Under the pieces are notes generated by a model. It searched no databases and was not told where the DNA came from. It saw nothing but the letters and a program-made list of their open reading frames with translations. Below are positions 11,061 to 49,239 of a DNA stretch of 64,000 bases, one piece after another. The translations under genes were made by a program, and so were the position numbers. The stretch is from Patescibacteria group bacterium (GTDB lineage Bacteria; Patescibacteriota; Microgenomatia; UBA8517), in contig JBBTWD010000002.1 of the NCBI GenBank assembly GCA_038062915.1, positions 5,189 through 69,188 of the forward strand, in the 5' to 3' direction. The first letter of the stretch is position 1; every line of letters starts with the position of its first letter.

Positions 11061-11061
11061 T

Positions 11062-13666: not shown

Positions 13667-13686
13667 TCCGTGTACTAGTACACGGA
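13667..13686 (+). terminator. Perfect 20-bp palindrome tccgtgtactagtacacgga followed by TTTTT; intrinsic terminator and/or second operator copy
   Basis: Read directly from the sequence; it overlaps the stop codon of the convergent GT4 C-half ORF. Confidence 0.45.
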
Positions 13687-30864: not shown

Positions 30865-32105
30865 ATTGAAGATAGCGCTATAAATATTTGTCCAATTAAG
30901 ACAACCAAGCTTGTTCCCACGATTGAATATCGAGGAATAAAAATTATGCTGGTAACTAATATTATCACCATGTGAGCTATTCCCATGTAAAAGAAAAATT
31001 GAGGCTTGCTAAAATAAAATATTACACTGTCTCTGAATGGGGCGGTAGAAAAAAATATTGCCATTGCAACAACAAGGATTAGAAATGGCATAGTTGCGCT
31101 GTCAAAGTCACTCCCCGCAAACTTGAAAACAAAATGACCAATTATTACTAATGCTATTGAGCTGACTGTCGCAAGTCCCGATGTAAACAAAACGGATTTT
31201 ATGGTGTAGGCTAAATTCTTTTTGTTTGTGCTAAGTGAGGCAAATTTTGGTGCAGTAACCGCACCGATCGCTATCATTAACTGGGGAATGATTTGAGAGA
31301 TTTGGAGTGCCAGTCCATAAACTCCAAGTGAAGATAAGCTTAAATATCTTGCAGTAAAATACAACTCAATTCGAGACCCAATTGTTGAAACAATTACAAA
31401 AGCGGTTACCCATTTATTAAAACTAAAAAGATCGGGTAAATAAGCAAGAACTCCTTTTGAAAACAAAAATCTTTTACCCAAAAATATAAATGAAAACAAA
31501 AATCCTAAAAAGGGCAATACTAAATATATTACTGCCGCGGAGTAAGCACCAAGCGACTGAAACTTAAAAAGGAGAAGAATCATTAAAAGTCTTATCAGAT
31601 TTGTTCCAATAAAAAGTCCGCTCCATAAAAAATATTTTTCAAGAGACTGCGAAAGGGAGGTTGAAAAAGAGAAAAGAATTTGAGCCAAAACTCCAACGCC
31701 AATTAAAACAATAATCGAGGTTAACTCTGGTTTTTGTAAAACTAGCGATGAAATACTACCAGAGAAAATAAAAATTAACAAAAAAATAGTTAACCCTGAA
31801 ATAAATTTAATACCCAATGAAAGCTTAATAAGTTTATTTTGAATGTCAGGATTGTCTTTATATTTTGGGATAAATCTTACAATCCCTTGATCGCTTCCTA
31901 AATCTACAATCCCGGTCAGAAGTGCTATCGAAGTTGTAAAAATTGTAAATACACCAAACTCCGATGAACCTAAGAATTTAGCTAAAAGAAAATAAAAAAT
32001 AGCACCCAAAGCTCCATTAATCATCGTGCTAATCAGGGTAATTGAAGAGTTGCGAAAAGTACTAGTTAGGAAAATTTCTTTGAACATACTAAAAATATTA
32101 TACAA
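30834..32105 (-). CDS. wzx: Wzx-type oligosaccharide flippase (MOP superfamily, polysaccharide biosynthesis protein)
   Basis: About 12 TM helices; N-terminus ...MINGALGAIFYFLLAKFLGSSEFGVF... typical of Polysacc_synt. Confidence 0.75.
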   Translation of the reverse strand: MYNIFSMFKEIFLTSTFRNSSITLISTMINGALGAIFYFLLAKFLGSSEFGVFTIFTTSIALLTGIVDLGSDQGIVRFIPKYKDNPDIQNKLIKLSLGIKFISGLTIFLLIFIFSGSISSLVLQKPELTSIIVLIGVGVLAQILFSFSTSLSQSLEKYFLWSGLFIGTNLIRLLMILLLFKFQSLGAYSAAVIYLVLPFLGFLFSFIFLGKRFLFSKGVLAYLPDLFSFNKWVTAFVIVSTIGSRIELYFTARYLSLSSLGVYGLALQISQIIPQLMIAIGAVTAPKFASLSTNKKNLAYTIKSVLFTSGLATVSSIALVIIGHFVFKFAGSDFDSATMPFLILVVAMAIFFSTAPFRDSVIFYFSKPQFFFYMGIAHMVIILVTSIIFIPRYSIVGTSLVVLIGQIFIALSSIWYFFKLSKK

Positions 32106-34777
32106 GAAGTTAGTGTGGTAAGGCTTACAATTAACCCCGGAACAATATACTTCTGTGGGGCAAAGTAAAGATCGTATTCACCATCACCATCAATCCAAAA
32201 CCCATTAATCAAACTATATAGGCTATACCCTTTGTTGGAATTTAGTTCCCAGCCACTATCAAATATATCTGAAAAGAATAATGTGGTAGGACTTTTTAAT
32301 CCTTCAATTTTAATTTTGTAATGTGTAGGCGCAAGCGTCTCATAAATTACTTTGGCCTTGTTTTCACCTTTAAATAAGTCCGCACTAAACTTTATGATTT
32401 TTCCTTCGCTTTCTAGGCTTTTCACTTTTTGAATTAGTTCTTTTTCTTCTTTCAAAGAAAGTGTTACCAGAGAATTGACTATATTTATATCGCCTTTAGT
32501 TTTAATATCTAAATTGAAATCTTTCAAAACTTCGCCTATTCTTATCCAGTGAAAATCTGCTTTATCATAAATTGCTTTTTTTAATTTAATCTCTATCTTT
32601 TCAGGTTCCTTAATTTTAGTGTTAGCTTCCCCTATTTTCGTTTTTTCTTGCCAAAACTCAACTGTTTCCCCCCTACTACTTTCCATTACCCTTGCATACA
32701 GTACGCCGCCTTTCCTTAATTCGGGATTCATAATTCTTAATTCTAGGTTTCCCTCCGCAATAGCCCAACCACTTCCGTAATCAAAATCTAAATTATCAAT
32801 CCCATACTTCCCTTGCAAAAAATTCCGCAACCAAACCAGGTCAACCGCTTCCCTCTTCCACCAGCCTTCGCCAAAGCTTCGGCTGGCAGGCCATTCCGTT
32901 TGATTGGGGCTAAAATCCAAATCAGCACTTGGGGAAATAAATTTATCTTTATCAACCAAGGAAATGGCTAAATCGGTTAAGTTTTTATCGTATAAAATTA
33001 TCTTTGCGTCAAACAGATCATAGGTTCCAGATTTTTCTTCGATAAATATTAAGGCATTATTAGAAAATTTGGCTCCAAAATTTTTGATTTCTTGATAAAT
33101 CCTATCTGATCCAAGTATAAAATATGTGTTTTGGGAAAGGAAAAATTTGTCTTTATTTTCTTTTGTTTTAAATACTGGAACCGGAAAATCTGAAACCTTT
33201 CCTAAAATCCAAGGAAGGGTACTAATTTGATCATGAAAAGTATTGTAATAATCTACTTTCTCTTTACCCATGTCGTCGCGTTTTGGATCAAAATATGGAT
33301 AAGCTATATATTTTATACCTGATATATCAAACAACTCACCCATATAATTCCCTTCTCTTATAAAATTCTGTGTCTCATAGTTGCCGACCGTGCTAACTGC
33401 AAAGGGTCGAAGTGATTGCAGCCGACTTGCTTCAAGTGATGGGTGAAGGGGTGAGGCGTATCCCAACGGAGGTCTAGATGGGATCCAAAAAATTCGTCCG
33501 AAACTCTTATCATTTTCGAATATGGTAGTAAGTGTAGAATACCCACTTTCATATCGGGGAGTCGAAAATGTACCAGTCATTTTTCCTAAATAAACTGGTC
33601 GGATTAAATATAAAAAATATAATACAACTAAAAGCGGAAAAACCACCTTAAGTTTTAAATATTTTTTTGTTATTACGTCAACAGTAAATGCGATCAAAAC
33701 AGAGTAGGAAAGAGCAATTAAAAAGAAAAACTTAGTCGAATCTCTAAACAGAGAAAATCCAGGAATATTAGTAAATAGCCAAGTATAGGTACCTGCCAGT
33801 GGTGAATTTGCCCCTTTTGCTAAAAAAACAGAAATAAGTGCAACTACAGCCCAAAACCAAACTTCTTTAATCTTCCATCTTAAAACTGGGGCTAAAAATG
33901 CAAGAATTGGAATTAAAAGAAACTCCTTCCTGAATGGTGGGATTTTCCCAAATATATTTTCGTGCCAGTGGGGCTGGAGTAAGGTTAAAGAATGTTTAAG
34001 CTGTGTAAAATTTAAGTCTGAAGTTTTTGTAAGATCTGAAAATCTGGCACTTGAAAGTGGGTATTTAATAAACGGAGCTATCCAGTAAATGTTAAGGGCG
34101 ATAAAAATGATCGCTACGATGAATCCACTCTTTATCCACTCAAAATTCCATCCAAAAAAAATAAACCTTAATATTAATAAAATTGCCAAAATATATACAA
34201 ACCTAATATCTAAAATTCCCAAAACCCACATAGCAAGGCCAGAATATATTTTATATTTAAACTCACTTTTAATTGAATTTAAAAAAAGTAAATATGCTGT
34301 AGGAAACCATGCATAAGCTAATCCTATACCCAGTTGACCTCCATCAATTAAAAGTAGTATGTAAGTATTTGATAAATAAAAAAATACCGCTACAAACCTC
34401 CCTACTTGAGATAATTTTAATTTCTTAAGCAAGTTCCAAATGCTATATATACCCACTAAAAGTGTGGGGATAATAAACATTAACCGCTCTAAAATTTCAA
34501 ATGTAAACCCAAAATTGGTAAATATCCCTGCAGTAAAATCCATTAGCCACGACCAAAGCGTGAAAACTGAATAGCCACCGAAGCCTATTGAGCCTCTTAA
34601 AAACCAAAGCTGTGGAATATTAAGTTGGATTTTTAAATCAGGTGAAGAAACATTAGGAAAATCGGTAGCTACCCTGGGGCCAGATGGCCACCATTTCCAA
34701 TAAACCACCGCAAGTAAAATAATTAGCAAAATTAAATATTTACGCTCTTTGAGCCATGTGTATAATTGATTAATCAT
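32066..34777 (-). CDS. Giant polytopic membrane protein, GT-C-like (903 aa; paralog of 36537..40070 and 47338..49239)
   Basis: About 430-aa multi-TM N-terminal half, about 440-aa extracytoplasmic domain and a C-terminal TM anchor. Confidence 0.45.
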   Translation of the reverse strand: MINQLYTWLKERKYLILLIILLAVVYWKWWPSGPRVATDFPNVSSPDLKIQLNIPQLWFLRGSIGFGGYSVFTLWSWLMDFTAGIFTNFGFTFEILERLMFIIPTLLVGIYSIWNLLKKLKLSQVGRFVAVFFYLSNTYILLLIDGGQLGIGLAYAWFPTAYLLFLNSIKSEFKYKIYSGLAMWVLGILDIRFVYILAILLILRFIFFGWNFEWIKSGFIVAIIFIALNIYWIAPFIKYPLSSARFSDLTKTSDLNFTQLKHSLTLLQPHWHENIFGKIPPFRKEFLLIPILAFLAPVLRWKIKEVWFWAVVALISVFLAKGANSPLAGTYTWLFTNIPGFSLFRDSTKFFFLIALSYSVLIAFTVDVITKKYLKLKVVFPLLVVLYFLYLIRPVYLGKMTGTFSTPRYESGYSTLTTIFENDKSFGRIFWIPSRPPLGYASPLHPSLEASRLQSLRPFAVSTVGNYETQNFIREGNYMGELFDISGIKYIAYPYFDPKRDDMGKEKVDYYNTFHDQISTLPWILGKVSDFPVPVFKTKENKDKFFLSQNTYFILGSDRIYQEIKNFGAKFSNNALIFIEEKSGTYDLFDAKIILYDKNLTDLAISLVDKDKFISPSADLDFSPNQTEWPASRSFGEGWWKREAVDLVWLRNFLQGKYGIDNLDFDYGSGWAIAEGNLELRIMNPELRKGGVLYARVMESSRGETVEFWQEKTKIGEANTKIKEPEKIEIKLKKAIYDKADFHWIRIGEVLKDFNLDIKTKGDINIVNSLVTLSLKEEKELIQKVKSLESEGKIIKFSADLFKGENKAKVIYETLAPTHYKIKIEGLKSPTTLFFSDIFDSGWELNSNKGYSLYSLINGFWIDGDGEYDLYFAPQKYIVPGLIVSLTTLTSCIIFLVCSKKFS

Positions 34778-34778
34778 C

Positions 34779-36224
34779 GTGTTTAAAAAATATTTTCCTT
34801 TTATCCTTATTTATTCGATTGTAATTTTTTTGTACTATCCGGTCCTTTTTACATACTTCTCTCATGATGATTTTTTCCACTTTAAAGTTAGTATAACAGA
34901 CAGAGGTCTCGGGGAAATTATTAAGCTATTTGAGTTTTACCCATTTGACTCACGGGGGATTGCCTTTTATAGGCCGATATTTAGAGAGTTTTTGTATAAT
35001 AATTTTTATTATTTATTTGGGCTTAATCCACTACCTTTCAGGGTCTTTCAGTTTCTTATCCATTTCGTAAATATTTATCTTGTCTTTAGATTGGTACAAA
35101 AAATATACAAGAACAAAATTGTTTCATTTTTCACCTCTTTTTTCTTCGGGATTTGTACAGCAAATGTCGCTTCATTTTATTACTTGGCAGGGGGGATTCA
35201 AGTCCAAGGAGCTACGATGTTTATATTATCAACACTTATCTTGTTTGAAAAATATCCGGTTCTTTCGTTTATAACTTTCCTAGGAGCAATTTCCTCACAT
35301 GAGCTAGCTGCAACAGTCCCCATTCTCCTAATCGGCTTAATACTAATTAAGCATAAATTTAAAGATGGTTTAAAACAGATATGGATTCTTTGGCCCTATT
35401 TCATAGTTGTAGGAATTTATCTCTACATCAACCTAAAAATTATTGGTTATTCTACGAGTGAAACCCAATATAGTCCTGTCTTAAATCCAAAGACGACTAT
35501 TAACACTTTAGCCTGGTATGGTGGATGGGCGCTGGGGCTCCCTGAAACGCTTATAGACTTCGTTGGTCCCGGATTTAAATTAAATCCCAGTTTAATGAGA
35601 TTTTGGGGAAACTATTATAAAATAATTTTTCCTTCTTTTTTTGCCTCCGCTACCTTGATTGTTTTCTATTTAATTCAATCAGCACTATCGAAAAGTAGAA
35701 TATTTAAAGACAAACGATTTTGGTTTTTTATAATTTGGTTCCTGATAATTTTACTCCCCGTATTATTCCTTCCACAACATAAGTCAACATATTATTTATA
35801 TCCAGCATTACCGGCATTCTGGGCAGTACTAGGGATAATATCGTATAAAATGTCAAGGATATTGTTTGTAATTCTGGTTATATCTTTAGTTAGCTTATCT
35901 ACATCATCTGCAATTTTAGGCAGATCAACTTATTGGGCTTCTAGTCGGGGGAAACTGGCAGAAAAAATCATTAACAGCGTGAAGTTAAAATATCCTACTC
36001 TACCGGTAGGCTCGGGGGTTTACTTCATAAATGACTCAACATATCCATTCGTAGCCCAAGATTGGAAAGGCACATCCAAGCAGGCGTCATATGCGCTTAA
36101 CGGCGAAGACGGATTACAGCTTGTTTATAAGGATAAATTATTGAGGGTGTTTTATGAGGACAGTGGCGGAATACCTGACGAGTTTCCAATAGATAAAATA
36201 AAACCCATCGTTGCCATATATTAG
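34779..36224 (+). CDS. Polytopic membrane protein, GT-C-like
   Basis: About 12 TM helices; FSHDDFFHF in the first loop. Confidence 0.4.
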   Translation: MFKKYFPFILIYSIVIFLYYPVLFTYFSHDDFFHFKVSITDRGLGEIIKLFEFYPFDSRGIAFYRPIFREFLYNNFYYLFGLNPLPFRVFQFLIHFVNIYLVFRLVQKIYKNKIVSFFTSFFFGICTANVASFYYLAGGIQVQGATMFILSTLILFEKYPVLSFITFLGAISSHELAATVPILLIGLILIKHKFKDGLKQIWILWPYFIVVGIYLYINLKIIGYSTSETQYSPVLNPKTTINTLAWYGGWALGLPETLIDFVGPGFKLNPSLMRFWGNYYKIIFPSFFASATLIVFYLIQSALSKSRIFKDKRFWFFIIWFLIILLPVLFLPQHKSTYYLYPALPAFWAVLGIISYKMSRILFVILVISLVSLSTSSAILGRSTYWASSRGKLAEKIINSVKLKYPTLPVGSGVYFINDSTYPFVAQDWKGTSKQASYALNGEDGLQLVYKDKLLRVFYEDSGGIPDEFPIDKIKPIVAIY

Positions 36225-36544
36225 TCTTTCTTTAAAATCTGAAACAGTATGATTACAACCAATGTTCCAAAACCAGTACTTGCCGCCATTACAGCCATGT
36301 CGCGTAATTGAAAAATTTCTAATATTGAGGATGATATATAAAAAATCCCTACAGTTAAAAACCAAAAAAACAATTTAATTTTTGGATATTTATATATAAT
36401 AAAAATTAAAACCGTGAATAAACCTGCCTGTATTACTGGCCACAACGGATTAGTCAAAAAACCACTATTTAAAAACCAAAAGAAAGCAAAAACAAATAAA
36501 AGTAAGGCTATAGATTTTATATATTTTAGTATTTTCTTAATCAT
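36221..36544 (-). CDS. Small membrane protein (3 TM helices)
   Basis: ORF between two GT-C-like genes; hydrophobic. Confidence 0.35.
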   Translation of the reverse strand: MIKKILKYIKSIALLLFVFAFFWFLNSGFLTNPLWPVIQAGLFTVLIFIIYKYPKIKLFFWFLTVGIFYISSSILEIFQLRDMAVMAASTGFGTLVVIILFQILKKD

Positions 36545-39500
36545 TACGTTTTTTCCTTAAAAAGAATATTCCTACAACCACACTTGAAATAGTTGCAACT
36601 GCCGAAAACGTAATTCCCTTGTAAAATCTTTTTTGTGGAATAAATTCGATTTTTATTAAATATTCACCAGGATCTTCGTTTAGATACCATAGGTTACCAT
36701 ATCCGTTGGCTAAAAAATGGCGTTTTTCGGGTAAAACATATGACACCCCATCTTTAGTTAATGAAACTTTCCACTCTGGGTGAAAAGTTGTAAGAAAAAC
36801 CAGTGAAGTTGGACCATTCAATAATAGTCTACCCTCGTAGTAAGAAGGAGAAATCTGATTGATATCAATTTTTTGCCTATTTCTAACACCATCTTTTGCA
36901 ATATCAATAGATCTTAAAAACACATCATTAACCAAAAGTCGTTTAACAGATATATTTCGTATAGCGAAATCACTTTCTCTGTTGTAATCCTCACCGATTT
37001 CTTTGATTTTACATGCAACTTTATCGCCCAATATGGCCAAACAATTGTTCCAAGGCTCGCCATTAATTTTAACAACAGCTTCGGTAGTATTTAATCTAGG
37101 TTCAAAAAAGATTGACCCTGAATTCCAATAAAAGCTGTAATTATCCTTGTCATATATTTTATCTATCGACATATACCTTCTACCATTTACATCCCAGTCA
37201 GAGTCTTGCATCACTTGCAAAATGGGTCCCCGACCTTTTTTTATCCAATAATCAAAATCAACCCGATAAATACTATTTTTATCAAAGTCTTTTATATTAA
37301 ATGAGAGGCTTGAAGAATCAGTTTTAGAAGTATGAAAATCAAAAACTGGTTGAGTTGCATCACCAATCTGTTTAACCGATCCAGTTAATTGCCATTCTTG
37401 ACTGCCAATTTCAGGCGAAAGATTGACAGAGTCAACCATATTATAACTAATTTCGTGCAAACCCTTATCCAACTTAATAGTGCCAAACGAGAGAAACCCC
37501 ATTTTTAAATTTGCACTAAGCACTTTGACCTCGTTGTCAATTTGAAAGACTAGAGTTTTCAAACCACCTTGGTATTGAGAGTCACTTGGGGAATTTTTTA
37601 ATAATATCTCGTACTCAACATCTTTTTGGACATCAAATCTAAACACTTTTCGACCGTATTTACTCATTCCTATGTCTTCCTTTAATTCGTAAAACGGTAC
37701 GAATCCTAAATCGGACAACTTAATCTTCATATTCTCAAGTGCACTCAAATTATTCAGATCTTTTAAAACTATCTCATGCCTGGCGAGCATGGTTTTTAAT
37801 ATCAATTTTTCAGTTTTATCTACTAGTCCTCCCACCTGTCTTTGATTTATGATCTCGACTGCTTTATCAAACCTCTTGCTGTAATTAGCAATCATACGAT
37901 TGGCTAATTTAATATTCCCCTTTTCTGTTAACCGATGGGCTTCAGATAATCTTTTGCCGGCATGATCTAGTTCTACAAAATGCTTATTCATAGCAGGTGA
38001 TGAGACAAGTTGTACTTGTTCTTTTATCAAGATTAAGGAGTAAAAAAGAGAGTCGGGTAAAAAACGTGGCCTTGGAAGCTCTGCTAGCGCATTTTCTTTA
38101 TAAGCAAGGGGGGAAGACGGAGTTAGAATGGTATGAGTCGAGGTTATGGAATAATTCAAATTGCTTTGAGCTGACAACTCGTCTTGATTGTCATTTACTG
38201 GTGTTGCAAAAAACACGGGCCAAGATTCATTTTCATAAATCTCAGGCCAAATGGAAAAACCAATACTACCACCGGTTAAAACATTATAAACTTCTGCTGT
38301 AAACACCTTTGGTGTAAAAAAACTATCGTCAATTTCATAGATCACCAAATCACCAAAAGTTACTTTTTTCTGAATAAAACTTATTTGGAATAAAACTTTT
38401 TCGATAGCGTCCGGATTAACCAATACTCTTGCCTTCCAATCAATATCTTTATGCAAAACGATATATCTAATATTTAAATTTGAGAATACATTTGCCAGGC
38501 TTTTTTGATCAAAACTATTCGAAGTAAAAATGATATTTATAGAAGCTAGACTATGATCCACTTGTTCGAGTCCGAAACCATTTGAAACTGATGGAGTTGA
38601 GAATAGGAGTGAGCTTGGCTCAATTCCATTATATCCCTTTTCCCATGAATAAGTAACAGCGTCGCCAGTAACAAATGGCAAATGAAGAATTCTTCCAGAT
38701 TTATTTTCATCCTTAATCCAGGCGTTTGCTCTTATATAATCTTCAGGAACCTCAACCAATGCTGATTGTGATTTACTTCCAAAGATTTCTCCAAGCCACA
38801 TTGGCCAAGGGTAAATAATAAACTCAAGGACTAAAAGTGTGGAAATAAATACATAAGCCAAAATTCTCTTACCTGAAAATTTGGATTTTAGGAAAAAACA
38901 AATCTTTTCTATTCCTATTGGAAATATAAAGGCCGATGCAAAAGGAATCAATATCCCAAATTTTTCAAATGGATTACGAAACGCGCCCAAAAGAAATGAC
39001 TTACTGAAAGCCAAAAGAAAAGGATGTCCGAATGGGGCAGCTGTTCCTTTTGAGACAAAAATTGCTAACAAGAATAAGAAAATCCATACATAAAAATGTC
39101 TTTTTTTGCTAACTATAATCGAATAAATACCAATCAAAGTAACTAAAGGTATTGACCAGGAAATTAACTGCATTAAAAAATGACCATACCCACCAACCCA
39201 TATGTTTTCACCGAAAGTATAAAAGGAGTTGATACCACGCAGTACAACCGATATCGGGTTTTGATTGCTCAAAGAAAGAAGTGTCGCAATACTCGCATAA
39301 ATTGAATGTATTTGGGCAAATAATGTCGGACCGGTCGTCCAAAATGGATAAAGCCACCAAATATTGATAGCTAACCAGGAAACAAATACTAAAATAAGAA
39401 TTTTTAGATTTCTAAAAAAATTGTTCCAAATTGAATAAGTTAAAATAGGTATCCATATAATGACCATAAACGATAAACTGCCATATATATATGAGAAGGC

Positions 39501-40070
39501 GAATGATATGAAAAGAAAAACTAGATACCAAAAGAGACGTTTGGATTTTATCAATTTAATATAAACATAAGTTATAAGGGGCATCATTGCAGCTAAGAAA
39601 AATGAGGTATGAACAAACCTATGCCATATTTGAACTTCCATGTAGGGATTTAGCATGTAAAAAAGTGCGGCGATGAAAGATAAAACTCTTGATTTTGAAG
39701 ATGTTGCTTCAAAAAAAAGCAAATACATCCCTAAACCTGTAAGAAAGAGTAGTGTCGAAAAAAGAATCGCTTGAATCGCTACAGGAGACATACCTACGGT
39801 TTGCAATATGGCTAAAGTAGAATATAGGGGGATTGAAGTTAAAGCGCTAGGATAAGGAAATCCTGGGGCATGTACATCCCACCAGATATCTTTTACAATG
39901 GATGAAAGACGTATGGGATTGTAAGTAGGAAGACCAACATCCCCACCGCCATATAGAATACCTGTCCGAAACCAACTTAAAATCATAATGACAGTAATGG
40001 CTAAAAAAATACTTAATGGCCAAATATGGTAGCGTGCCTTAGAAAGAAGACTATTTACTTTTTTTAACAT
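36537..40070 (-). CDS. Giant polytopic membrane protein, GT-C-like (1177 aa)
   Basis: N-terminus IMILSWFRTGILYGGGDVGL...AIQAILFSTLLFLTGLGMYLLF is paralogous to 47338..49239; about 700-aa extracytoplasmic domain; C-terminal TM anchor. Confidence 0.45.
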   Translation of the reverse strand: MLKKVNSLLSKARYHIWPLSIFLAITVIMILSWFRTGILYGGGDVGLPTYNPIRLSSIVKDIWWDVHAPGFPYPSALTSIPLYSTLAILQTVGMSPVAIQAILFSTLLFLTGLGMYLLFFEATSSKSRVLSFIAALFYMLNPYMEVQIWHRFVHTSFFLAAMMPLITYVYIKLIKSKRLFWYLVFLFISFAFSYIYGSLSFMVIIWIPILTYSIWNNFFRNLKILILVFVSWLAINIWWLYPFWTTGPTLFAQIHSIYASIATLLSLSNQNPISVVLRGINSFYTFGENIWVGGYGHFLMQLISWSIPLVTLIGIYSIIVSKKRHFYVWIFLFLLAIFVSKGTAAPFGHPFLLAFSKSFLLGAFRNPFEKFGILIPFASAFIFPIGIEKICFFLKSKFSGKRILAYVFISTLLVLEFIIYPWPMWLGEIFGSKSQSALVEVPEDYIRANAWIKDENKSGRILHLPFVTGDAVTYSWEKGYNGIEPSSLLFSTPSVSNGFGLEQVDHSLASINIIFTSNSFDQKSLANVFSNLNIRYIVLHKDIDWKARVLVNPDAIEKVLFQISFIQKKVTFGDLVIYEIDDSFFTPKVFTAEVYNVLTGGSIGFSIWPEIYENESWPVFFATPVNDNQDELSAQSNLNYSITSTHTILTPSSPLAYKENALAELPRPRFLPDSLFYSLILIKEQVQLVSSPAMNKHFVELDHAGKRLSEAHRLTEKGNIKLANRMIANYSKRFDKAVEIINQRQVGGLVDKTEKLILKTMLARHEIVLKDLNNLSALENMKIKLSDLGFVPFYELKEDIGMSKYGRKVFRFDVQKDVEYEILLKNSPSDSQYQGGLKTLVFQIDNEVKVLSANLKMGFLSFGTIKLDKGLHEISYNMVDSVNLSPEIGSQEWQLTGSVKQIGDATQPVFDFHTSKTDSSSLSFNIKDFDKNSIYRVDFDYWIKKGRGPILQVMQDSDWDVNGRRYMSIDKIYDKDNYSFYWNSGSIFFEPRLNTTEAVVKINGEPWNNCLAILGDKVACKIKEIGEDYNRESDFAIRNISVKRLLVNDVFLRSIDIAKDGVRNRQKIDINQISPSYYEGRLLLNGPTSLVFLTTFHPEWKVSLTKDGVSYVLPEKRHFLANGYGNLWYLNEDPGEYLIKIEFIPQKRFYKGITFSAVATISSVVVGIFFLRKKRND

Positions 40071-40737
40071 TTATCTTTTTGTATGCCACAAAAACATAAT
40101 CTGCAAACGTCTGATCCCAATAATATAATGGGGAAATTACAATATTAAATAAAAACAATAATTTCTTTATTAAATCTGATTTTACTCTATGAACCAAACC
40201 GACCTCCCCAAGCAACCAACGGTTACCATACTTTAAGGTTTTATAACCCAGTCTCTTAAAATCTTTTGGAAAAAAGTGTGATAGATGCAATTGTAATTTA
40301 TTACCATCAACCGCGGGGTGGTACATTTCACCAATTGGAGTAGCTATAATAACTTGCTTTTTAGCTATCCGTTCTAAATCCTTTATAAATTTAGTTGCAT
40401 CATGGGGTGGGAGGTGTTCAATAACGTGTGAGGCAATAACAATGTCAAAACTTCTGGCAGGAAACTTCATTTTTCTAATATCGCTTAGGACATACTTATC
40501 ATGGAGCTTGCTTCTTCTGGCTTGGCTAATATATTTTTCAAATAAATCTACTCCCACAACATAATCGGGCTTTAATACCATTCTTATTAATCTCATTGGA
40601 TAACCCTGTCCACAACCAACGTCTAAGATACTCGACCCTGATCTATCTATAACTTTGCAAACAGGGTCTACAAGCATGTCCAACCAAAGTTTGATAGGGA
40701 ATAATGATTTATCGATTTTTTTATATATTTTTAACAT
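40051..40737 (-). CDS. Class I SAM-dependent methyltransferase (small, about 200 aa)
   Basis: ILDVGCGQGYPM...FDIVIASHVIEHL...QVIIATPIG...HPAVDGN. Confidence 0.75.
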   Translation of the reverse strand: MLKIYKKIDKSLFPIKLWLDMLVDPVCKVIDRSGSSILDVGCGQGYPMRLIRMVLKPDYVVGVDLFEKYISQARRSKLHDKYVLSDIRKMKFPARSFDIVIASHVIEHLPPHDATKFIKDLERIAKKQVIIATPIGEMYHPAVDGNKLQLHLSHFFPKDFKRLGYKTLKYGNRWLLGEVGLVHRVKSDLIKKLLFLFNIVISPLYYWDQTFADYVFVAYKKINVKKSK

Positions 40738-42250
40738 TTTTGTAAGCTACCATGTAGTAATTAGCCAGCGGTTGAATAAAATAGGTTAGCCAATTAACGA
40801 GGAGTATAAGTGAATAAATTAACTTTTTCCATACACCATTTTGGTATCTGTCTATTAATCCCCCAATACCTTCAATCTCGCTTCTACCCATTTTTATTAC
40901 TTTGTATCCCCTAGCTATCAACTCATCTGGCATAAATCCTGATTTATGTAGTTGAAGGCGATTACCATCAACAGCTGGGTGAAATGTCCTTCCAATTGGC
41001 ATAGATATAATAACTTGCTTTTTAGCTATCTTTTCTAAATTGTCTAGAACCCTTAAAGATTCATCTTTTCTTATGTGTTCTAAAACCTGCAGGGCAATAA
41101 CAATATCAAAAGACTTATTCTCAAACGGCAAATTCCTGACATCAGCTAGTGAATATGAATCATGTATTCCCTTTCTTCTACATTCATTGATATAGGGTTT
41201 AAAAAGATCAACTCCATGGACAAACTTAAATTTTATTTTTTCTTTTAAAACCTGCATTGGAAGTCCACCCCCGCAAGCTACATCTAAAATGGTTTTACCC
41301 GATGTATCAATAACCCTACAAACCGGGTCAACCAATGAAATCAAGAAAAGTTTTAATGGGAAAAAAGAATAATCGATTCCGGAAATAATTCCCTTCCAAT
41401 AATTAGACAAAACATCAAATCTTGCAGTCATTAAAATAATTAAAGAATGTAAAACGATGTAAATTGGCTCGTAAAAAAACATAAAGACTAGAAAGTTGTT
41501 TTTTTGTGCATGTTTTTTCATAAATATGATCTTATTTTTACTTACTCTAAATGATCTCTCGGGAGTTGTTATCCCCAACCATTGAAGCCAGGGGTTAATA
41601 AATGTTTTTTTAGCTCCCGTATGCCAAGCGCGAGATTTCGGAACATAAAATATTTTATACCCAGCTTTTCTAGCTCTTATGGAGAAGTCAGAATCTTCAT
41701 AGGGAATAAAGATTTCCTCATCGTAGTCTCCAATTTTATCAAACACATCCCGCCTTACCAACCAAGTACATCCGGCCATTGGAATTTCGATTACTTTCTC
41801 AAACTGACCTACATCTTTTTGGTGAACTCCAATGCCAAAAACTCTGCCGGTTTTAAGGTTAATGCCATGTCCAACTCCTTGAATAATATCTGGCTTTCCC
41901 ATTTCATAAATTTTAGGTTGGACTATTCCAATTTTAGAGTCAGTTGTTATAACTTTAATAAGTTCTTTAACCATCTGTCTGTCTGCAACAGCATCGTCAT
42001 CCATGAATAAAACAAATTGACCTTTAGTATGGAGTAGCCCTAAATTTCTTCCTCCCGCACCCCCCAGATTTGTTTCACTTCTAATAACATTAATGCTTGA
42101 GGTTTTCTTGACTCGTTGGCTTGAGGCATTGTCGACAACAACAATTTCATCAATTTTCTGTGACTGAGCTAATATTGATTTAAGACATAGTGAAAGTTCC
42201 TTGTTGCGGTTTCTTGTTACAATTACTACTGATATGGAAGGCTTGTTCAT
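40721..42250 (-). CDS. Bifunctional GT2 glycosyltransferase - SAM methyltransferase fusion
   Basis: N-terminal SVVIVTRNRNKELSLCL...IVVVDNASS...FMDDDAV; C-terminal ILDVACGGGLPM...FDIVIALQVLEHI...QVIISMPIG...HPAVDGN. Confidence 0.75.
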   Translation of the reverse strand: MNKPSISVVIVTRNRNKELSLCLKSILAQSQKIDEIVVVDNASSQRVKKTSSINVIRSETNLGGAGGRNLGLLHTKGQFVLFMDDDAVADRQMVKELIKVITTDSKIGIVQPKIYEMGKPDIIQGVGHGINLKTGRVFGIGVHQKDVGQFEKVIEIPMAGCTWLVRRDVFDKIGDYDEEIFIPYEDSDFSIRARKAGYKIFYVPKSRAWHTGAKKTFINPWLQWLGITTPERSFRVSKNKIIFMKKHAQKNNFLVFMFFYEPIYIVLHSLIILMTARFDVLSNYWKGIISGIDYSFFPLKLFLISLVDPVCRVIDTSGKTILDVACGGGLPMQVLKEKIKFKFVHGVDLFKPYINECRRKGIHDSYSLADVRNLPFENKSFDIVIALQVLEHIRKDESLRVLDNLEKIAKKQVIISMPIGRTFHPAVDGNRLQLHKSGFMPDELIARGYKVIKMGRSEIEGIGGLIDRYQNGVWKKLIYSLILLVNWLTYFIQPLANYYMVAYKNVKNI

Positions 42251-42267
42251 CTCGAAGGTATTATAAA

Positions 42268-43308
42268 CTACCAGCGTTTACTTGCCAAAAAAGTTTTAAA
42301 ACCTTGAAGTGTTTGCCCCTTTATTAGAAATGGTATAAACGCTTGACTGTCCGAAAGCTTTCTTTTCCCCTGAACAGATGACCTTTTGTTCATAAGTATG
42401 GAAAAATTCAGGATAGCCCAGACAATCGCCTTAAACCTGGCCAAACCAAATCTCCAAAGGCCTTTGTAAAATATTTCAAATAATCCGGAAGCGATATAAA
42501 TTAAAAAAATCACGGGTATTGACTTAATTGCATTCACGAAATTGTAATTTTTAATTACAGTAGAAATTCTATTTTTATTAAACCAGAATTTTATTTCAGC
42601 CTTTAATTTAGCGCTCACTCTCGATGTTGAAGACCCTCGCTTATGATAAACAATAGCTTCTGGGAAACAGTAAATCTTATAGCCAAGAAGTCGCAACCTC
42701 AAGGATAAATCCATATCTTCATAACCAATTCGATAATCGGGGTCAAGAATCCCAACTTCAGGAATAAGACTGGCTCTAAAAAGAGACGTAGATCCAGTAA
42801 CTGATAAAACCTCCCTCAACTTGTTATATTGCCCCATGTCTTCTTCCCCCCCACCCAAGGTTACGGGGTTACCAAATATATCCATCGACTCTCCAACACT
42901 ATCAATTTTTTTGTGGTCAAAATATGAAAGAACCTTTCCTTGAATTTGACCAGCTTCGGGGTGGCTGTCCATAAAATTTACCAATTTCTCAATTGCACCT
43001 TTTGCAAAATATATATCGTTATTCAAAAAGAAAATATATTTCCCACTGGATTTTTTAATTGCCATGTTAATACCTTTGGTCATATTATTTACCGGGTTTT
43101 GTATTATTTGAAGCCTTTTATCATGGCCAAAATGCTTTCTAACCTCTCTAACACTATCATCAGAGGAAACCATATCAACAAAAAAAATTTCAAAATCCTT
43201 AAAACTTCCATTTAAGAAATCCTTGAAGAAGTCACCCAAAAGTCCCAATTCCCAACCATTATAATTAGTTACAATCGCACTGACTAAGGGTGATTTTTTG
43301 TTTACCAT
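42268..43308 (-). CDS. GT2 family glycosyltransferase with C-terminal TM segment
   Basis: VSAIVTNYNG...FVDMVSSDDS...FFLNNDIY; paralog of the GT2 domain in 40721..42250. Confidence 0.8.
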   Translation of the reverse strand: MVNKKSPLVSAIVTNYNGWELGLLGDFFKDFLNGSFKDFEIFFVDMVSSDDSVREVRKHFGHDKRLQIIQNPVNNMTKGINMAIKKSSGKYIFFLNNDIYFAKGAIEKLVNFMDSHPEAGQIQGKVLSYFDHKKIDSVGESMDIFGNPVTLGGGEEDMGQYNKLREVLSVTGSTSLFRASLIPEVGILDPDYRIGYEDMDLSLRLRLLGYKIYCFPEAIVYHKRGSSTSRVSAKLKAEIKFWFNKNRISTVIKNYNFVNAIKSIPVIFLIYIASGLFEIFYKGLWRFGLARFKAIVWAILNFSILMNKRSSVQGKRKLSDSQAFIPFLIKGQTLQGFKTFLASKRW

Positions 43309-43365
43309 AACTTTAAAATATTGTATCTTACTATTGACAAAAAATCCTCTCTGCTGTAGTTTTAC

Positions 43366-46161: not shown

Positions 46162-47353
46162 GTTCCAATACCTCCCTTGCTCGCAGGTCCCATGACCAAT
46201 TTTTGCTAATCATCTCTAACGCCTCTTTGCCAATCTTTTCTCTGATTTTATTATTAGATAGCAAATTTAAAATTTCCTTTGCAAATTCATCCAAATCTCC
46301 GATCTTTACTTTGACCATTCCTTTTGGATAATAGGAGGAATATGATTTAAGATCAAAGCCAATACAGGGTATGCCAAATGCCATAGCTTCAGCAGAAGCC
46401 ATACCACCACTATCATAAAGTGCGGGGTGAACTACAATTTTTGACTCTGAAAAAGTTTGATATTTTTTGTCCCCGTCAAAAACATAACCCAAGAGGTCAA
46501 TGTTATCCTCTAATTTTGCGTCTTTAATTTTTGATTTAACATTCTTCATTAATGGACCATCTCCGATCATTACCAGTTTGGCATTTTTATTTTTAACTAC
46601 AACCTTTTTCCAAATTTCTATAATCTCGACAACACCTTTTTGGGGATGGAACCTACCTTGAAAAACCGCATCATACACCTTGGGTAGATTTTTATTTATG
46701 AATTTCCAATTTTCAATCTTTTTTACGTCCACCGCACCAAGAACAACAATAGTTTTACCCTTTTTATCAAGCCCAGGGAACTCTTTTCTTTCTCCCTCGT
46801 TGTTAACTAAAACAAAATCTGAAAATTTGGAAATTATGGGTTTAATAGGAAACTGGCTTAACCAATAGAGAAGTGCTTTAAATCTATATTTCTCTTCTCT
46901 CGCTCCTTCGGCATATCCCCTAAAGGGGTTTGGGGCCGTCTGATACCAAGTTGCAACCCACTTAATATTTGGGTAACGAATTTTCAAAATAAAGCATGGT
47001 AAAGTGTCCATCCAAAAATCAGACGCGCTGTACAATATAGTCTCTTTTTTGTTTTGAAGTTTAATCGATAACCCAAGTCTAATTCCTTCTATAATTCTGG
47101 CAAAATAATTTACTACAAAACCTAGGTCACTCCATGGTTTCATTGAAGAAATTTTAAAAGCTATATTTTTACTTTTTAAATCTTGTCTTTTACACATTTG
47201 GTAACCTTCAGTCCAAAGATAAATATTAATTTTAGACTTTTTACTCCACCGTCTCGCAAATTCTATAAATATCCTGTCACTACCAGAAAGACCTACTCCA
47301 AGGGCCCCCAATGCGAAAATTTTTATATTTTGAGTTTTTATTGCCATGGCCAT
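46148..47353 (-). CDS. GT4 family glycosyltransferase
   Basis: Glycos_transf_1 C-domain with GGMASAEAMAFGIPCIGFD. Confidence 0.8.
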   Translation of the reverse strand: MAMAIKTQNIKIFALGALGVGLSGSDRIFIEFARRWSKKSKINIYLWTEGYQMCKRQDLKSKNIAFKISSMKPWSDLGFVVNYFARIIEGIRLGLSIKLQNKKETILYSASDFWMDTLPCFILKIRYPNIKWVATWYQTAPNPFRGYAEGAREEKYRFKALLYWLSQFPIKPIISKFSDFVLVNNEGERKEFPGLDKKGKTIVVLGAVDVKKIENWKFINKNLPKVYDAVFQGRFHPQKGVVEIIEIWKKVVVKNKNAKLVMIGDGPLMKNVKSKIKDAKLEDNIDLLGYVFDGDKKYQTFSESKIVVHPALYDSGGMASAEAMAFGIPCIGFDLKSYSSYYPKGMVKVKIGDLDEFAKEILNLLSNNKIREKIGKEALEMISKNWSWDLRAREVLEHVKD

Positions 47354-49239
47354 ATTTTAAAAATCAAGTCTACTCTATAACTCCCGGCCTTATCAATATC
47401 CCAAGCATTAGCATAGCCGTAAGCTACGAAATGGTCAAATATGACCTCCTTATTAATTCTTGCTATCCATAAAGGGCTGAATGAGTTCCTAAGTATTATT
47501 TTAAATGGTTTATTTGCATTGGTTACATTAACGACATAATGACCCGGACTAATTTTCTGATAATTGTTGGGGGTGTAATTTAAGTTTTTATAAATATCTA
47601 AAAATCCTATAGATTTTAAAAATTTAATTTGGCTATATTTCTTTAAATTTTCTTTTATTTCCGCGGACGAGCTAGCATTACTATATTTGGGATCAATCTC
47701 ATTATGCAAAATGAAATATTCTATATCCATTTCTGAAAGCAGGTTGTCAATATTTTTATTTTGGGTAAATGTATTATATAGAGACATATATTTATCATCA
47801 GCAAGATTATAGCGAACAGTTTTTGAAACTACTGGATCTGAAAACAATATATCACTAGGCTCAAGGCCGTAATATGAAGTTTCTCCCCAATCATACTTGA
47901 CACCCTCCCCTGGAATCATTGGCAAGGATAATATCCGCCCAGTAATACCCAGGGCTTTGACATAATCATCAGCGACTTTGTAATCATTTGGAACCCTAAC
48001 CGATGCGGCTGGAGAGAAAGGCCCTTGTCCCCACATTGGCCAAACCAAAACTATAAGAGTAAGGGGGATAAAAAATCCAACCAATATAAATTTCCAAATG
48101 TGCGTCGCTTTCTGATATATAAATCCAAAACCGTAAGCAAAAAATAAACTATAAACCATAAGCCATACCGTTCCAAACTTTTCATATGAACTTCTAAAAG
48201 CTCTAGCAAACGAAACGTTCTCAAATAAAAATCCAAATAAAGCGTTTCCAAGTGGCGGATTTGTTCCCTTACAAATAAAAAGTCCAATAATTGCCAAGGT
48301 CATTAAGTATTTATATTCTTTTAAAATCCTAGCTTTGACAAAACCGAAAATAGTGATTGCTAAAATTGCAAAACTAACAAAATAAGATAAACTTCCTTTA
48401 TAAAAGTTGCCCCAATAATTTAAGCGCTCAAAAAAGAATTTGTGCCTAAGAAGTAATACATCACTTATTTTTGAATCCACACTCACCCCACCCAAACTCG
48501 CCAAATCATATTTCCAATCATGAATGTTTGAAATTACAGTAGATTGCAATTTAAAGTATGGATAAATCCACCAAATGTTAAATAAAGTCCAAATAAAAAT
48601 TCCTAAAACAATCCTTGGTATATAAGTTTTTTTGAAACGAAATATTGAAAATAACAATGAGACTGACCAAAAAGATATTATAAAGGCAGGATGTGAATAT
48701 GCCGAAGAAAACAGAACTGAAAAAATGCCAAACAAAAATAGATGTTTACATTTTCCCTCACTAAACCATTTAATCCATAAAAACAAAAGTAGAGGCAGTG
48801 AGGCCCAAGCGAAAAAACCAGCAAATACAAACCTGGCCCAAACCTGTGACTGCGTGTATAAGTTTAGTATGTAAAATAAACCAGCAAGTAAAGATATAGT
48901 TTTTCGATTTTCACCGAAAAAATATTTAGCCAAAAAATACATTCCAATTCCAGCGCTTGATGTTAGTACCCAAAATAAGATAGCTTGAATAGTTGAAGGA
49001 TTAAAAAAATAACTTAGTAAATAAGTAAAAAAGTAAACGGGAATTCTAGGTAACCAAAAAGGGCTTGGGTAACCCAGGCCCATATCAATCCAACTAGATC
49101 CATATGTAGAAGCCATCTTAATCGAATTCCAGGTAGATAAACTTTCTTCTCCACCTGCGAAAAAGTTTCCATTTCTAAACCAAGAGAAAATAACTATCGA
49201 AGAAATAAAAAGTAAAACAAAAATATATTTTTTATTCAT
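47338..49239 (-). CDS. Large polytopic membrane protein, GT-C-like (633 aa)
   Basis: IVIFSWFRNGNFFAGGEESL...TIQAILFWVLTSSAGIGMYFLAKYFF and the loop VPNDYKVADDYVKALGITGRILSLPMIPGEG parallel the 1177-aa protein. Confidence 0.45.
   Translation of the reverse strand: MNKKYIFVLLFISSIVIFSWFRNGNFFAGGEESLSTWNSIKMASTYGSSWIDMGLGYPSPFWLPRIPVYFFTYLLSYFFNPSTIQAILFWVLTSSAGIGMYFLAKYFFGENRKTISLLAGLFYILNLYTQSQVWARFVFAGFFAWASLPLLLFLWIKWFSEGKCKHLFLFGIFSVLFSSAYSHPAFIISFWSVSLLFSIFRFKKTYIPRIVLGIFIWTLFNIWWIYPYFKLQSTVISNIHDWKYDLASLGGVSVDSKISDVLLLRHKFFFERLNYWGNFYKGSLSYFVSFAILAITIFGFVKARILKEYKYLMTLAIIGLFICKGTNPPLGNALFGFLFENVSFARAFRSSYEKFGTVWLMVYSLFFAYGFGFIYQKATHIWKFILVGFFIPLTLIVLVWPMWGQGPFSPAASVRVPNDYKVADDYVKALGITGRILSLPMIPGEGVKYDWGETSYYGLEPSDILFSDPVVSKTVRYNLADDKYMSLYNTFTQNKNIDNLLSEMDIEYFILHNEIDPKYSNASSSAEIKENLKKYSQIKFLKSIGFLDIYKNLNYTPNNYQKISPGHYVVNVTNANKPFKIILRNSFSPLWIARINKEVIFDHFVAYGYANAWDIDKAGSYRVDLIFKIWPWQ

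Follow-up and report, generated by a model that had tools for sequence, protein, structure and literature searches.

The Locus and Its Genes

The window, i.e., the whole stretch of 64,000 nucleotides that was analysed, contains a wall-glycan locus of ~55 kb, in which three large membrane proteins are encoded together with other steps of wall-glycan assembly. The locus comprises genes for GT2 and GT4 glycosyltransferases, methyltransferases, sugar-nucleotide enzymes, two Wzx proteins, a Wzy_C protein, a phosphoglycosyl transferase, and an LCP enzyme. The three large proteins are referred to as A (903 aa), B (1177 aa), and C (633 aa). Their open reading frames, described in the original prediction as a paralogous trio, are all found on the minus strand, and the gene calls are identical in an independent public assembly. 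These genes and the neighbours discussed with them are the following:

26802..27494 (-): GT2 of 230 aa, polyprenyl-phosphate sugar synthase-like, candidate supplier of a lipid-linked donor
29989..30864 (-): GT2 glycosyltransferase of 291 aa (PF00535)
30834..32105 (-): Wzx-type flippase immediately downstream of A (PF01943, E 1.1e-22)
32066..34777 (-): protein A, 903 aa, from an unnamed large family remotely homologous to the AftD-like GT-C domain
34779..36224 (+): multi-TM protein of 481 aa with an HDDFF motif past TM1, encoded between B and A on the other strand
36221..36544 (-): open reading frame of 107 aa with four hydrophobic helices, overlapping the B stop codon; conserved small membrane partner
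36537..40070 (-): protein B, 1177 aa, predicted AftD-like GT-C glycosyltransferase
40051..43308 (-): GT2 (346 aa), GT2-methyltransferase fusion (509 aa), and methyltransferase (228 aa), directly upstream of B
47338..49239 (-): protein C, 633 aa, short-form paralog of B
49243..50268 (-): GT2 of 341 aa, directly upstream of C
58084..58842: second synthase-like GT2 candidate, below NCBIfam cutoffs

Part of this arrangement constitutes a cassette with the order 1177-type (B-type) gene, small 4-TM protein, 903-type (A-type) gene, Wzx, GT2, and polyprenyl-phosphate-sugar-synthase-like GT2, which recurs in ~70 Microgenomates genomes. Among the 73 loci examined, the A-type gene is always accompanied by a B-type gene and is followed by a Wzx homolog in 57, while the PF00535 glycosyltransferase is present in 56. 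In 44 related loci, an ortholog of the synthase-like GT2 (26802..27494) is located 0.7–8 kb downstream of the A-type gene, with both genes on one strand in 41 of them; the best NCBIfam matches of the GT2 at 26802..27494, none of which reaches its curated cutoff, are AglJ (127 bits), PpgS, Dol-P-hexose transferase, and ArnC. A GT2 or a methyltransferase upstream of the B-type gene is also recurrent in related loci. Wzy was seen near the cassette in only 3 of the 73 loci, a count taken from 10-kb flanks that are too short to show absence. Moreover, conservation and synteny of both the A family and the B family extend over Woese-, Davies-, and Amesbacteria, and the families, therefore, do not represent a recent expansion in this genome. 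The lineage-specific expansion that had been proposed thus holds at the level of Microgenomates only.

Relationships among the Three Proteins

B and C are close paralogs, with 33% identity over 564 aa (BLASTP, E 2e-71), a similarity far above chance, and an additional C-terminal domain of ~100 aa in common. All the motifs quoted for this pair in the original prediction, namely SWFR(T/N)G, GG(D/E), (A/T)IQAILF, and G(L/I)GMY(L/F)L, were located, and the loop said to be shared (VPEDY.../VPNDY...) corresponds to residues 441–480 of B, which BLASTP aligns with residues 416–456 of C. C-type proteins form a conserved subfamily of 650–690 aa, and many of its members match PF11847.

The pairwise similarity of A to B and to C is weak (E 4e-4 to 1e-5). 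However, comparison of the A-family profile (52 sequences) with the B-family profile (41 sequences) using hhalign aligns 498 columns with a probability of 99.9% and E 2.4e-36, whereas a negative-control family of unrelated multi-TM proteins encoded in this locus gives a probability <2% against both. The trio is, thus, composed of two close paralogs, B and C, and of a member of a separate, anciently diverged family, whose kinship is seen in profile–profile comparison only. Judging from these profiles, A is a much older relative of B and C and a remote homolog of the same domain. Its family comprises 1750 representative clusters at E <= 1e-30 and has no Pfam or NCBIfam name at present.

Topology and Domain Organization

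The layout originally described, with a multi-TM core, a large extracytoplasmic domain, and a C-terminal TM helix in A and B, was confirmed by hydropathy and AlphaFold secondary structure, which place the N-terminal multi-helix cores at ~aa 1–396 (A), 1–425 (B), and 1–405 (C). The core is followed by a large soluble region and, in A (873–902) and B (1144–1176), by a single C-terminal TM helix, while none is detected by hydropathy in C. Since the N-termini and the C-terminal tails are rich in Lys and Arg, the soluble region is predicted from the sequence to lie outside the cell according to the positive-inside rule. The domains of B and A that could be delimited are listed below:

38286..39812 (-): B, aa 87–595, match to Pfam GT-C_AftD
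37749..38060 (-): B, aa 671–774, DUF5667 helical bundle within the outside region (PF18915, E 3.9e-11; helices 677–788 in the model)
36642..37652 (-): B, aa 807–1143, beta-sandwich modules, all-beta in the model
36543..36641 (-): B, aa 1144–1176, C-terminal TM anchor (hydropathy and model)
32459..32863 (-): A, aa 639–773, CBM6/35/36-like beta-sandwich
32072..32161 (-): A, aa 873–902, C-terminal TM anchor

Protein B is, therefore, built from the TM core (~1–425), an outside alpha/beta domain (~440–650), the DUF5667 helical insert, the beta-sandwich modules, and the TM anchor. The beta modules match beta-domains of CBM22, GH101, and Vip3 in Foldseek, and the model suggests that they are likely carbohydrate-binding. 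Of these parts, C lacks both DUF5667 and the C-terminal TM helix and keeps the core, the alpha/beta domain, and the final beta-sandwich.

Family Membership and Fold

B is the only one of the three proteins that passes the threshold of the Pfam family GT-C_AftD (PF11847), scoring 61.3 bits over aa 87–595 for a cutoff of 26; C remains under it with 15.2 bits, and A has no Pfam match. In addition, an NCBI entry with the same sequence as B carries the name 'alpha-(1->3)-arabinofuranosyltransferase family protein'. The AlphaFold (AF2) models, with pLDDT values of 90.8 for A and 83.4 for B, exhibit a GT-C fold, and mycobacterial AftD is the top structural match of both (for B, 6w98_A with E 2.5e-19), followed by other GT-C enzymes, of which PglB, AglB, and STT3 are the next best. 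PDB sequence and profile searches with B, A, the N-terminus of B, and the three family profiles did not return AftD at significant values (best E ~3). Neither the lack of a GT-C fold nor homology to transporters, outcomes named beforehand as contrary to the original prediction, was seen.

That prediction had placed the proteins near Emb/AftD-type or YfhO-type GT-C enzymes, and the part concerning AftD is sustained by PF11847 and by the best fold match, while the parts concerning YfhO and Emb find no sequence match. That the three proteins are YfhO or Emb members instead of AftD-family members is very improbable: the similar plan with an N-terminal TM core, a large outside domain, and a C-terminal TM helix speaks for it, but YfhO (PF09586) gives no match for A, B, or C up to E 1, no Emb Pfam model matches, and no Emb structure is found among the Foldseek matches listed. 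The sequence and model evidence is best accommodated if A, B, and C are AftD-type GT-C-fold membrane glycosyltransferases of this Microgenomates-related Patescibacteria bacterium, a reading to which we assign a probability of roughly 0.7.

Candidate Active-Site Residues

A conserved acidic residue, of the kind that the original prediction proposed to look for, is present in the first outside loop of each of the three proteins. This residue lies ~10 residues past TM1 on the outside face and is strictly conserved in each family; later loops contribute an invariant Lys-Gly...Pro and an Arg. The positions of interest are the following:

39939..39941 (-): B, Asp44 (GGGD), candidate catalytic acid in the first outside loop; D in 39/39 members covering the position
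34661..34663 (-): A, Asp39 (RVA[N/T]DFP), candidate catalytic acid in the first outside loop; D in 52/52
34334..34345 (-): A, aa 145–148, invariant DGGQ motif, aligned with WHR(F), which is invariant in the B family

All 52 A-family sequences compared retain K321 and the DGGQ, KG..P, and RD motifs, while in the B family K341 and an Asp or Glu at position 470 occur in 41 of 41 sequences. C retains E31, K324, R349, E353, K354, and E445. AftD function requires K39, D41, E251, K361, and D474 (bioRxiv 10.1101/2019.12.22.885152). Counterparts assigned by position alone are D44/K341/D470 in B, E31/K324/E445 in C, and D39/K321 in A, so that D39, D44, and E31 may be equated with AftD D41; no clear counterpart of E251 is found in A, B, or C. 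The presence of DGGQ in A and WHR in B at the same site suggests that both proteins probably form different linkages or use different donors and, thus, do not back each other up.

These invariant residues also bear on whether A is an enzyme at all. A could be a non-catalytic GT-C-like scaffold or lipid-delivery factor, similar to MmpA of Corynebacterineae, that brings B and the small membrane protein together in a complex. MmpA shows partial homology to the AftD N-terminus, and no catalytic activity is known for it (PMC8698533). It is the sole curated family touched by A (NCBIfam NF053599, E 1e-10), both proteins are distantly related to the N-terminal membrane domain of AftD, and the constant company of B would suit such a role. 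However, the match is confined to aa 291–441 of A and reaches 41 bits, far under the cutoff of 210. Moreover, the first-loop Asp, DGGQ, KG..P, and RD are invariant in 52/52 sequences, and the CBM6-like module of A would be needless in a lipid-delivery factor; MmpA itself (NCgl2761/Rv0226c) has only ~475–545 aa, lacks a CBM, and acts in trehalose-mycolate transport. A scaffold role is, therefore, improbable, and A is better regarded as a putative AftD-type glycosyltransferase.

Other Membrane Proteins of the Locus

Between the B-type and A-type genes, an open reading frame of 70–150 aa with at least three TM helices is present in 34 of 45 related loci. The 27 positional orthologs of the 107-aa protein exhibit very low sequence conservation, and its identification as GtrA found no support, as no convincing GtrA, Pfam, or flippase match was obtained among them. 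In one public assembly, the 107-aa open reading frame is not called as a gene.

The 481-aa protein has no Pfam or NCBIfam match, is 53% identical to its ortholog in another locus, and is found in 18 of the 73 loci, adjoining the A-type gene in 14. Considered as a fourth AftD-like paralog, it gave hhalign probabilities <2% against the A and B families and, hence, does not belong with them, at least by sequence. The multi-TM open reading frames 55242..57011, 59995..61752, and 23849..25210 present neither mutual similarity nor family matches; that they encode GT-C proteins, as their DD motifs past TM1 might hint, is a guess.

Proposed Function and Comparison with Known Systems

The most likely function of A, B, and C, according to sequence and models, would be extracytoplasmic glycosyltransfer from lipid-linked sugar donors to a wall polysaccharide. 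In the proposed pathway, a polyprenyl-carried glycan would be initiated by the phosphoglycosyl transferase of the locus, built up by cytoplasmic GT2 and GT4 enzymes, and flipped to the outer face by Wzx. Single sugars would be loaded on a lipid carrier by the polyprenyl-phosphate-sugar-synthase-like GT2 and flipped as well. On the outer side of the membrane, A, B, and C would transfer these single sugars onto the growing or finished polymer, with the first-loop Asp/Glu acting as catalytic acid/base and the beta-sandwich modules holding the acceptor chain. The polymer would finally be attached to peptidoglycan by the LCP enzyme. In AftD and Emb enzymes, CBMs bind the acceptor (PMC11127046).

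AftD of Mycobacteriales (PF11847; 6W98, 6WBX, 6WBY) resembles these proteins in the GT-C fold, the TM core, and the outside alpha/beta domain, in the beta-sandwich modules of carbohydrate-binding type that follow the catalytic domain, in the position of an acidic residue past TM1 and of a Lys near residue 340–360, and in the setting of a wall-polysaccharide pathway, predicted here, whose last step belongs to an LCP ligase. However, sequence identity is ~10%, and lengths of 633–1177 aa are to be compared with ~1400 aa. A and B have one C-terminal TM helix and C none, in contrast to the five-helix bundle of AftD that binds acyl carrier protein, and B harbours the DUF5667 helical insert. The beta-sandwiches number one to few versus the three defined CBMs of AftD. 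No arabinose-donor pathway is encoded nearby: among the ~55 open reading frames scanned in the window, there is no UbiA-type phosphoribosyltransferase, no DprE1/E2-type match, and no decaprenyl-phospho-arabinose pathway gene. The host also differs, being a member of Patescibacteria, while the AftD family has been described across Actinobacteria (bioRxiv 10.1101/2019.12.22.885152).

Similarities extend to the three-component extracytoplasmic glycosylation systems (GtrA/GtrB/Gtr*; Citrobacter GT136), as the locus contains synthase-like GT2s and a conserved small 4-TM protein beside the GT-C genes. Such systems combine a GT-C enzyme that bears a CBM with a flippase and with a synthase of polyprenyl-phosphate sugars, all of which act after Wzx-dependent export (PMC11127046). 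Unlike in those systems, the small protein is not recognisably GtrA, the GT2s are below curated cutoffs, and the GT-C enzymes are much larger and belong to two different families that are always paired.

The close association with Wzx could equally reflect a diphosphate-linked oligosaccharide donor. In that case, A and/or B would transfer whole undecaprenyl-diphosphate-linked oligosaccharides flipped by the adjacent Wzx, either polymerising them or moving them en bloc to a protein or wall acceptor, like PglB/STT3/AglB or Wzy/WaaL. PglB, AglB, and STT3 likewise have the GT-C_A fold and act after a flippase, but they use diphosphate-linked donors and carry WWDxG in the outside domain. In A, B, and C, neither an STT3 Pfam match nor an outside-domain WWDxG is seen, and in the B family, the conserved WW is placed at aa 63–64, in the first loop. 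Furthermore, a Wzy_C protein is already present in the window, a monophosphate-sugar-synthase-like GT2 belongs to the conserved cassette, and the best match in both sequence and structure is AftD, which uses a monophosphate donor. Oligosaccharide transfer is consequently unlikely, though it deserves more weight than the other alternatives, and the transfer of single sugars by AftD-type enzymes is preferred.

EmbA/EmbB/EmbC offer a further parallel, with several GT-C paralogs bearing CBM-type outside domains, encoded by neighbouring genes and devoted to one wall polysaccharide, although the Emb matches are missing here, as mentioned above. The embCAB operon consists of tandem genes, an arrangement similar to that of B and A. 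By analogy, the paired B-type and A-type proteins and the small 4-TM protein might constitute a single machine like the EmbA–EmbB heterodimer, which in Microgenomates would polymerise or attach the Wzx-exported wall glycan, beyond mere decoration of the polymer, and replace Wzy or a ligase. This idea is speculative and rather doubtful; if true, wall-glycan assembly in a major lineage of the candidate phyla radiation would have AftD-like GT-C enzymes as its core apparatus.

Implications for the Patescibacterial Cell Surface

GT-C enzymes with carbohydrate-binding modules that act after Wzx export are well known, and the locus is a useful annotation that represents no new kind of system and overturns nothing. 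In the literature searched, no AftD-like enzymes were found for Microgenomates or Patescibacteria. Bacteria of the candidate phyla radiation are tiny, mostly uncultured, and thought to depend on other cells, so the surface is where their biology happens; to our knowledge, almost nothing is known about how this surface is constructed. The 903-aa family can now be annotated as putative AftD-like GT-C enzymes, and the cassette (B-type, small TM protein, A-type, Wzx, GT2, and synthase-like GT2) provides a defined gene set that is testable heterologously. In this locus, a Microgenomates-type genome devotes ~55 kb to a methylated, probably wall-anchored polysaccharide, in which the steps outside the membrane would be carried out by relatives of the mycobacterial arabinogalactan builders.

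Architecture of the three membrane proteins

Three large membrane proteins, referred to as A, B and C, are encoded exactly where the original prediction had placed their ORFs:

32066..34777, minus strand: A, 903 aa
36537..40070, minus strand: B, 1177 aa
47338..49239, minus strand: C, 633 aa

The order of the 633-, 1177-, 481- and 903-aa gene calls is identical in an independent public assembly. According to hydropathy and AlphaFold secondary structure, an N-terminal core of about a dozen helices is followed by a large non-membrane region and, in A and B, by the single C-terminal TM helix that had been proposed for them; C contains no terminal TM helix. Since the N-termini (KERK, KK..K.R, KK) and the tails past the last helix (KKFS, RKKRND) are basic, the soluble region would face outward under the positive-inside rule. 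The exact sequence of A was absent from the homolog search results (best match 67%), although a 903-aa gene is called at its corresponding position in the public assembly; this probably reflects a limitation of the word-index candidate step rather than true absence.

Family identity and kinship

B passes the Pfam model of the AftD family of GT-C membrane glycosyltransferases (GT-C_AftD, PF11847; 61.3 bits, cutoff 26, aa 87-595) and contains DUF5667 at aa 671-774. Its exact sequence already exists at NCBI in a Patescibacteria MAG, where PGAP has assigned the name 'alpha-(1->3)-arabinofuranosyltransferase family protein'. C, which has an identical NCBI entry ('hypothetical protein') on the same 156-kb contig, scores weakly against this model (15 bits) and falls within a conserved subfamily of short forms (650-690 aa), many of them with PF11847. 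A has no match in Pfam, and its sole curated match, local and far below threshold, is to MmpA, whose describers reported it to be partly homologous to AftD's N-terminal membrane region (PMC8698533).

Confident AlphaFold models were built on family alignments for A (pLDDT 90.8, pTM 0.87) and B (pLDDT 83.4, pTM 0.77). In Foldseek searches against the PDB, the top match of both was Mycobacterium abscessus AftD (A, E 4.5e-13; B, E 2.5e-19), with AglB, STT3, PglB and AftA ranking next, and the C-terminal beta domains of B resembled the beta-sandwiches of CBM22, GH101 and Vip3. The suggested AftD-type GT-C placement is thus upheld by the Pfam membership of B and the structural matches of both models. 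The other suggested types, YfhO and Emb, find no sequence support, as neither has a Pfam model matched by A, B or C; the STT3 Pfam model is likewise unmatched, and the three proteins show no sign of transporter affinity. B is a Pfam-level member of the AftD family; A and C are related to that family but divergent.

The N-terminal blocks and the VPEDY/VPNDY loop previously noticed in B and C are present and mutually alignable. Judged by sequence, B is a clear paralog of C: the two share 33% identity over 564 aa (E 2e-71) and a last domain of about 100 aa. Pairwise comparison of A with B or C yields two weak local matches (E 4e-4 to 1e-5). Alignments of collected homologs (52 sequences for A, 41 for B), compared as profiles, match over 498 columns (A 56-560/B 61-604; probability 99.9%, E 2.4e-36), spanning the membrane core and continuing into the outside domain. 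In this alignment, A Y134/N137, W232, K321-G322..P326, F-R345-D and G-R428..P433 are in register with B Y138/N141, W239, K341-G342..P346, F-R365-N and G-R460..P465, respectively. A control comparison used the family of an unrelated multi-TM protein, the 481-aa one whose gene lies between A and B; it gave a probability below 2% against either profile, and therefore hydrophobic composition alone does not explain the A–B match. Of the paralogous trio originally proposed, the homology of all three holds, but A constitutes a separate old family and not a recent copy.

Candidate catalytic site

In GT-C enzymes, a catalytic acidic residue sits in the first outside loop. A has Asp at D39 (RVA[N/T]DFP) in 52 of 52 sequences and an equally invariant K321. 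The B family has Asp at D44 (GGGD) wherever that position is covered (39 sequences), an invariant K341, and Asp or Glu at position 470 throughout. E31, K324 and E445 of C occupy the corresponding columns. K39, D41, E251, K361 and D474 are required for AftD function (bioRxiv 10.1101/2019.12.22.885152); the conserved positions of A, B and C are close to this numbering and may correspond to residues of that set. The invariant first-loop Asp, together with the CBM present in A, makes it unlikely that A is a non-catalytic protein similar to MmpA. Moreover, an invariant DGGQ in A (145-148) stands where B has an invariant WHR (149-151), suggesting from sequence that the two proteins may differ in donors or linkages.

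Glycan genes of the locus

Starting at about 5 kb, nearly all genes in the remainder of the window are glycan-related:

5017..6033: LCP ligase
10410..11060: phosphoglycosyl transferase
18124..19455: Wzy_C protein
26802..27494, minus strand: 230-aa synthase-like GT2
30834..32105 and 62481..63761: two Wzx flippases
Within the region: a mannose-1-phosphate guanylyltransferase-like enzyme; about 20 GT2 and GT4 enzymes; many methyltransferases, one a sugar O-methyltransferase; RmlD-like and epimerase/dehydratase enzymes

The 230-aa GT2 is most similar to polyprenyl-phosphate sugar synthases (AglJ at 127 bits, then PpgS, Dol-P-hexose transferase and ArnC), with every synthase-model score under its curated cutoff; the same tendency is seen for the GT2 at 58084..58842.

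At the start of the region, near the LCP gene, a 656-aa DUF4012 protein (8459..10429, minus strand) adjoins the phosphoglycosyl transferase. Another gene (40721..42250, minus strand) encodes a GT2 (aa 1-270), with weak GlfT1 and rhamnosyltransferase-like matches, fused to a class I methyltransferase (aa 316-420) with two hydrophobic helices in between. The presence of at least eight methyltransferase domains in the window suggests a heavily methylated glycan. Two GT4 genes on the minus strand appear split into overlapping half-length ORFs, one (13675..14698) into an N-domain (14180..14698) and a C-domain (13675..14187) overlapping by 8 nt, the other (12092..13182) into halves at 12628..13182 and 12092..12640, of which the upstream one matches nothing in Pfam at E <= 1e-4. 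A frameshift, an assembly error or a truly split gene could each account for this. Four more proteins of 453-589 aa (55242..57011, 23849..25210 and 16773..18140, minus strand; 59995..61752, plus strand) match no Pfam family, and three of them no NCBIfam model either. At least two are multi-TM (55242..57011, with an FGDDW motif past TM1, and 59995..61752), and the protein at 16773..18140 weakly matches a 'cell surface glycopolymer formation protein' model. Additional unrecognised membrane glycosyltransferases or polymerases may lie in the locus.

Conservation of the cassette

A scan with the A profile, using one genome per species, returned 71 loci, whose named hosts include Woesebacteria, Daviesbacteria, Amesbacteria and 'Patescibacteria group'; together with two further loci, 73 were annotated with HMMs and phmmer. 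B-type genes occur in 58 of these, Wzx in 57 and a GT2 of the type found downstream of Wzx (291 aa) in 56, most commonly in the order B-type (often two copies), A-type, Wzx, GT2. In 44 loci the 230-aa GT2 has an ortholog 0.7-8 kb downstream of A, encoded on the same strand in 41 cases. Among 1.84 billion representatives, the A profile matches 8576 clusters at E <= 1e-3, or 1750 at the stricter E <= 1e-30, and the A family is therefore large, though it has no name.

Some records stand apart. Loci L003, L008, L009 and about 40 others are third-party MAG records with a typical Microgenomates cassette titled 'uncultured Gammaproteobacteria bacterium', a title that their gene content and 40-65% identity to Woesebacteria and Daviesbacteria proteins suggest to be a placeholder or error. 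In a Woesearchaeota MAG (JBAZVO010000006.1) the cassette of B-type, A-type, Wzx and GT2 genes is present, with 25% identity to A, and a Nanoarchaeota MAG has a B homolog (36% identity); these DPANN-labelled cases represent either transfer among co-occurring ultra-small cells or mis-binned bacterial contigs. In a Saccharibacteria MAG (L070), A-type genes stand three in a row (978, 946 and 896 aa; ~10001..11272 and flanks) with no B-type gene or Wzx nearby, so the A family extends past Microgenomates in another arrangement.

Two further ORFs lie between B and A:

34779..36224, plus strand: 481-aa protein, about nine TM helices
36221..36544, minus strand: 107-aa ORF, four hydrophobic helices, 8-nt overlap with the B stop codon

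The 481-aa protein has no Pfam or NCBIfam match and is 53% identical to an ortholog in a genome whose B is just 34% identical. Its family, found in 18 of the 73 loci and mostly located between B and A but on the other strand, has invariant D30 (HDDFF past TM1) and Y64-R65-P66 (16 sequences), in what resembles a GT-C-type first loop. In 34 of the 45 loci with B before A, a small ORF with at least three TM helices separates the two genes; it shows very low sequence identity across loci, and none of 27 members convincingly matches GtrA or another flippase family. The 107-aa ORF is uncalled by the gene caller in one public assembly.

Proposed function and significance

The best-supported function of A, B and C is extracytoplasmic transfer of sugars from lipid-phosphate-linked donors to a wall polysaccharide. 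What the data show is the homology, the predicted fold, the conservation of acidic and basic residues, the CBM-like modules, the gene content of the locus and its synteny; the class of donor, the acceptor used and what the small membrane protein does are what we infer. The polysaccharide would be built on a polyprenyl carrier and flipped by Wzx, A, B and C would then add sugars from lipid-phosphate-linked donors outside the cytoplasm, and the LCP enzyme would finally join the product to peptidoglycan. The main rival explanation takes the Wzx-flipped diphosphate-linked unit as the substrate, with polymerase or en-bloc transferase activity; the tight linkage of A and Wzx and a near-equal structural similarity to oligosaccharyltransferases speak for it, whereas the Wzy_C gene in the window, the conservation of the synthase-like GT2 and the absence of oligosaccharyltransferase motifs speak against it.

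Counterparts of the lipid-phosphate-donor pathway would be the arabinan steps that mycobacteria carry out in the periplasm during arabinogalactan synthesis, as well as the three-component systems reviewed in PMC11127046. A, B and C probably operate like AftD. They differ from mycobacterial AftD in host lineage, size (633-1177 aa versus ~1400) and C-terminal helices (one or none versus an acyl-carrier-protein-binding bundle), and B is further marked off by its DUF5667 insert. The structural paper on AftD describes homologs across Actinobacteria, and our literature search found no paper on AftD-like enzymes in Microgenomates. B already carries a label in databases; what the analysis adds is a place for the A family, so far unnamed, and a defined conserved cassette.
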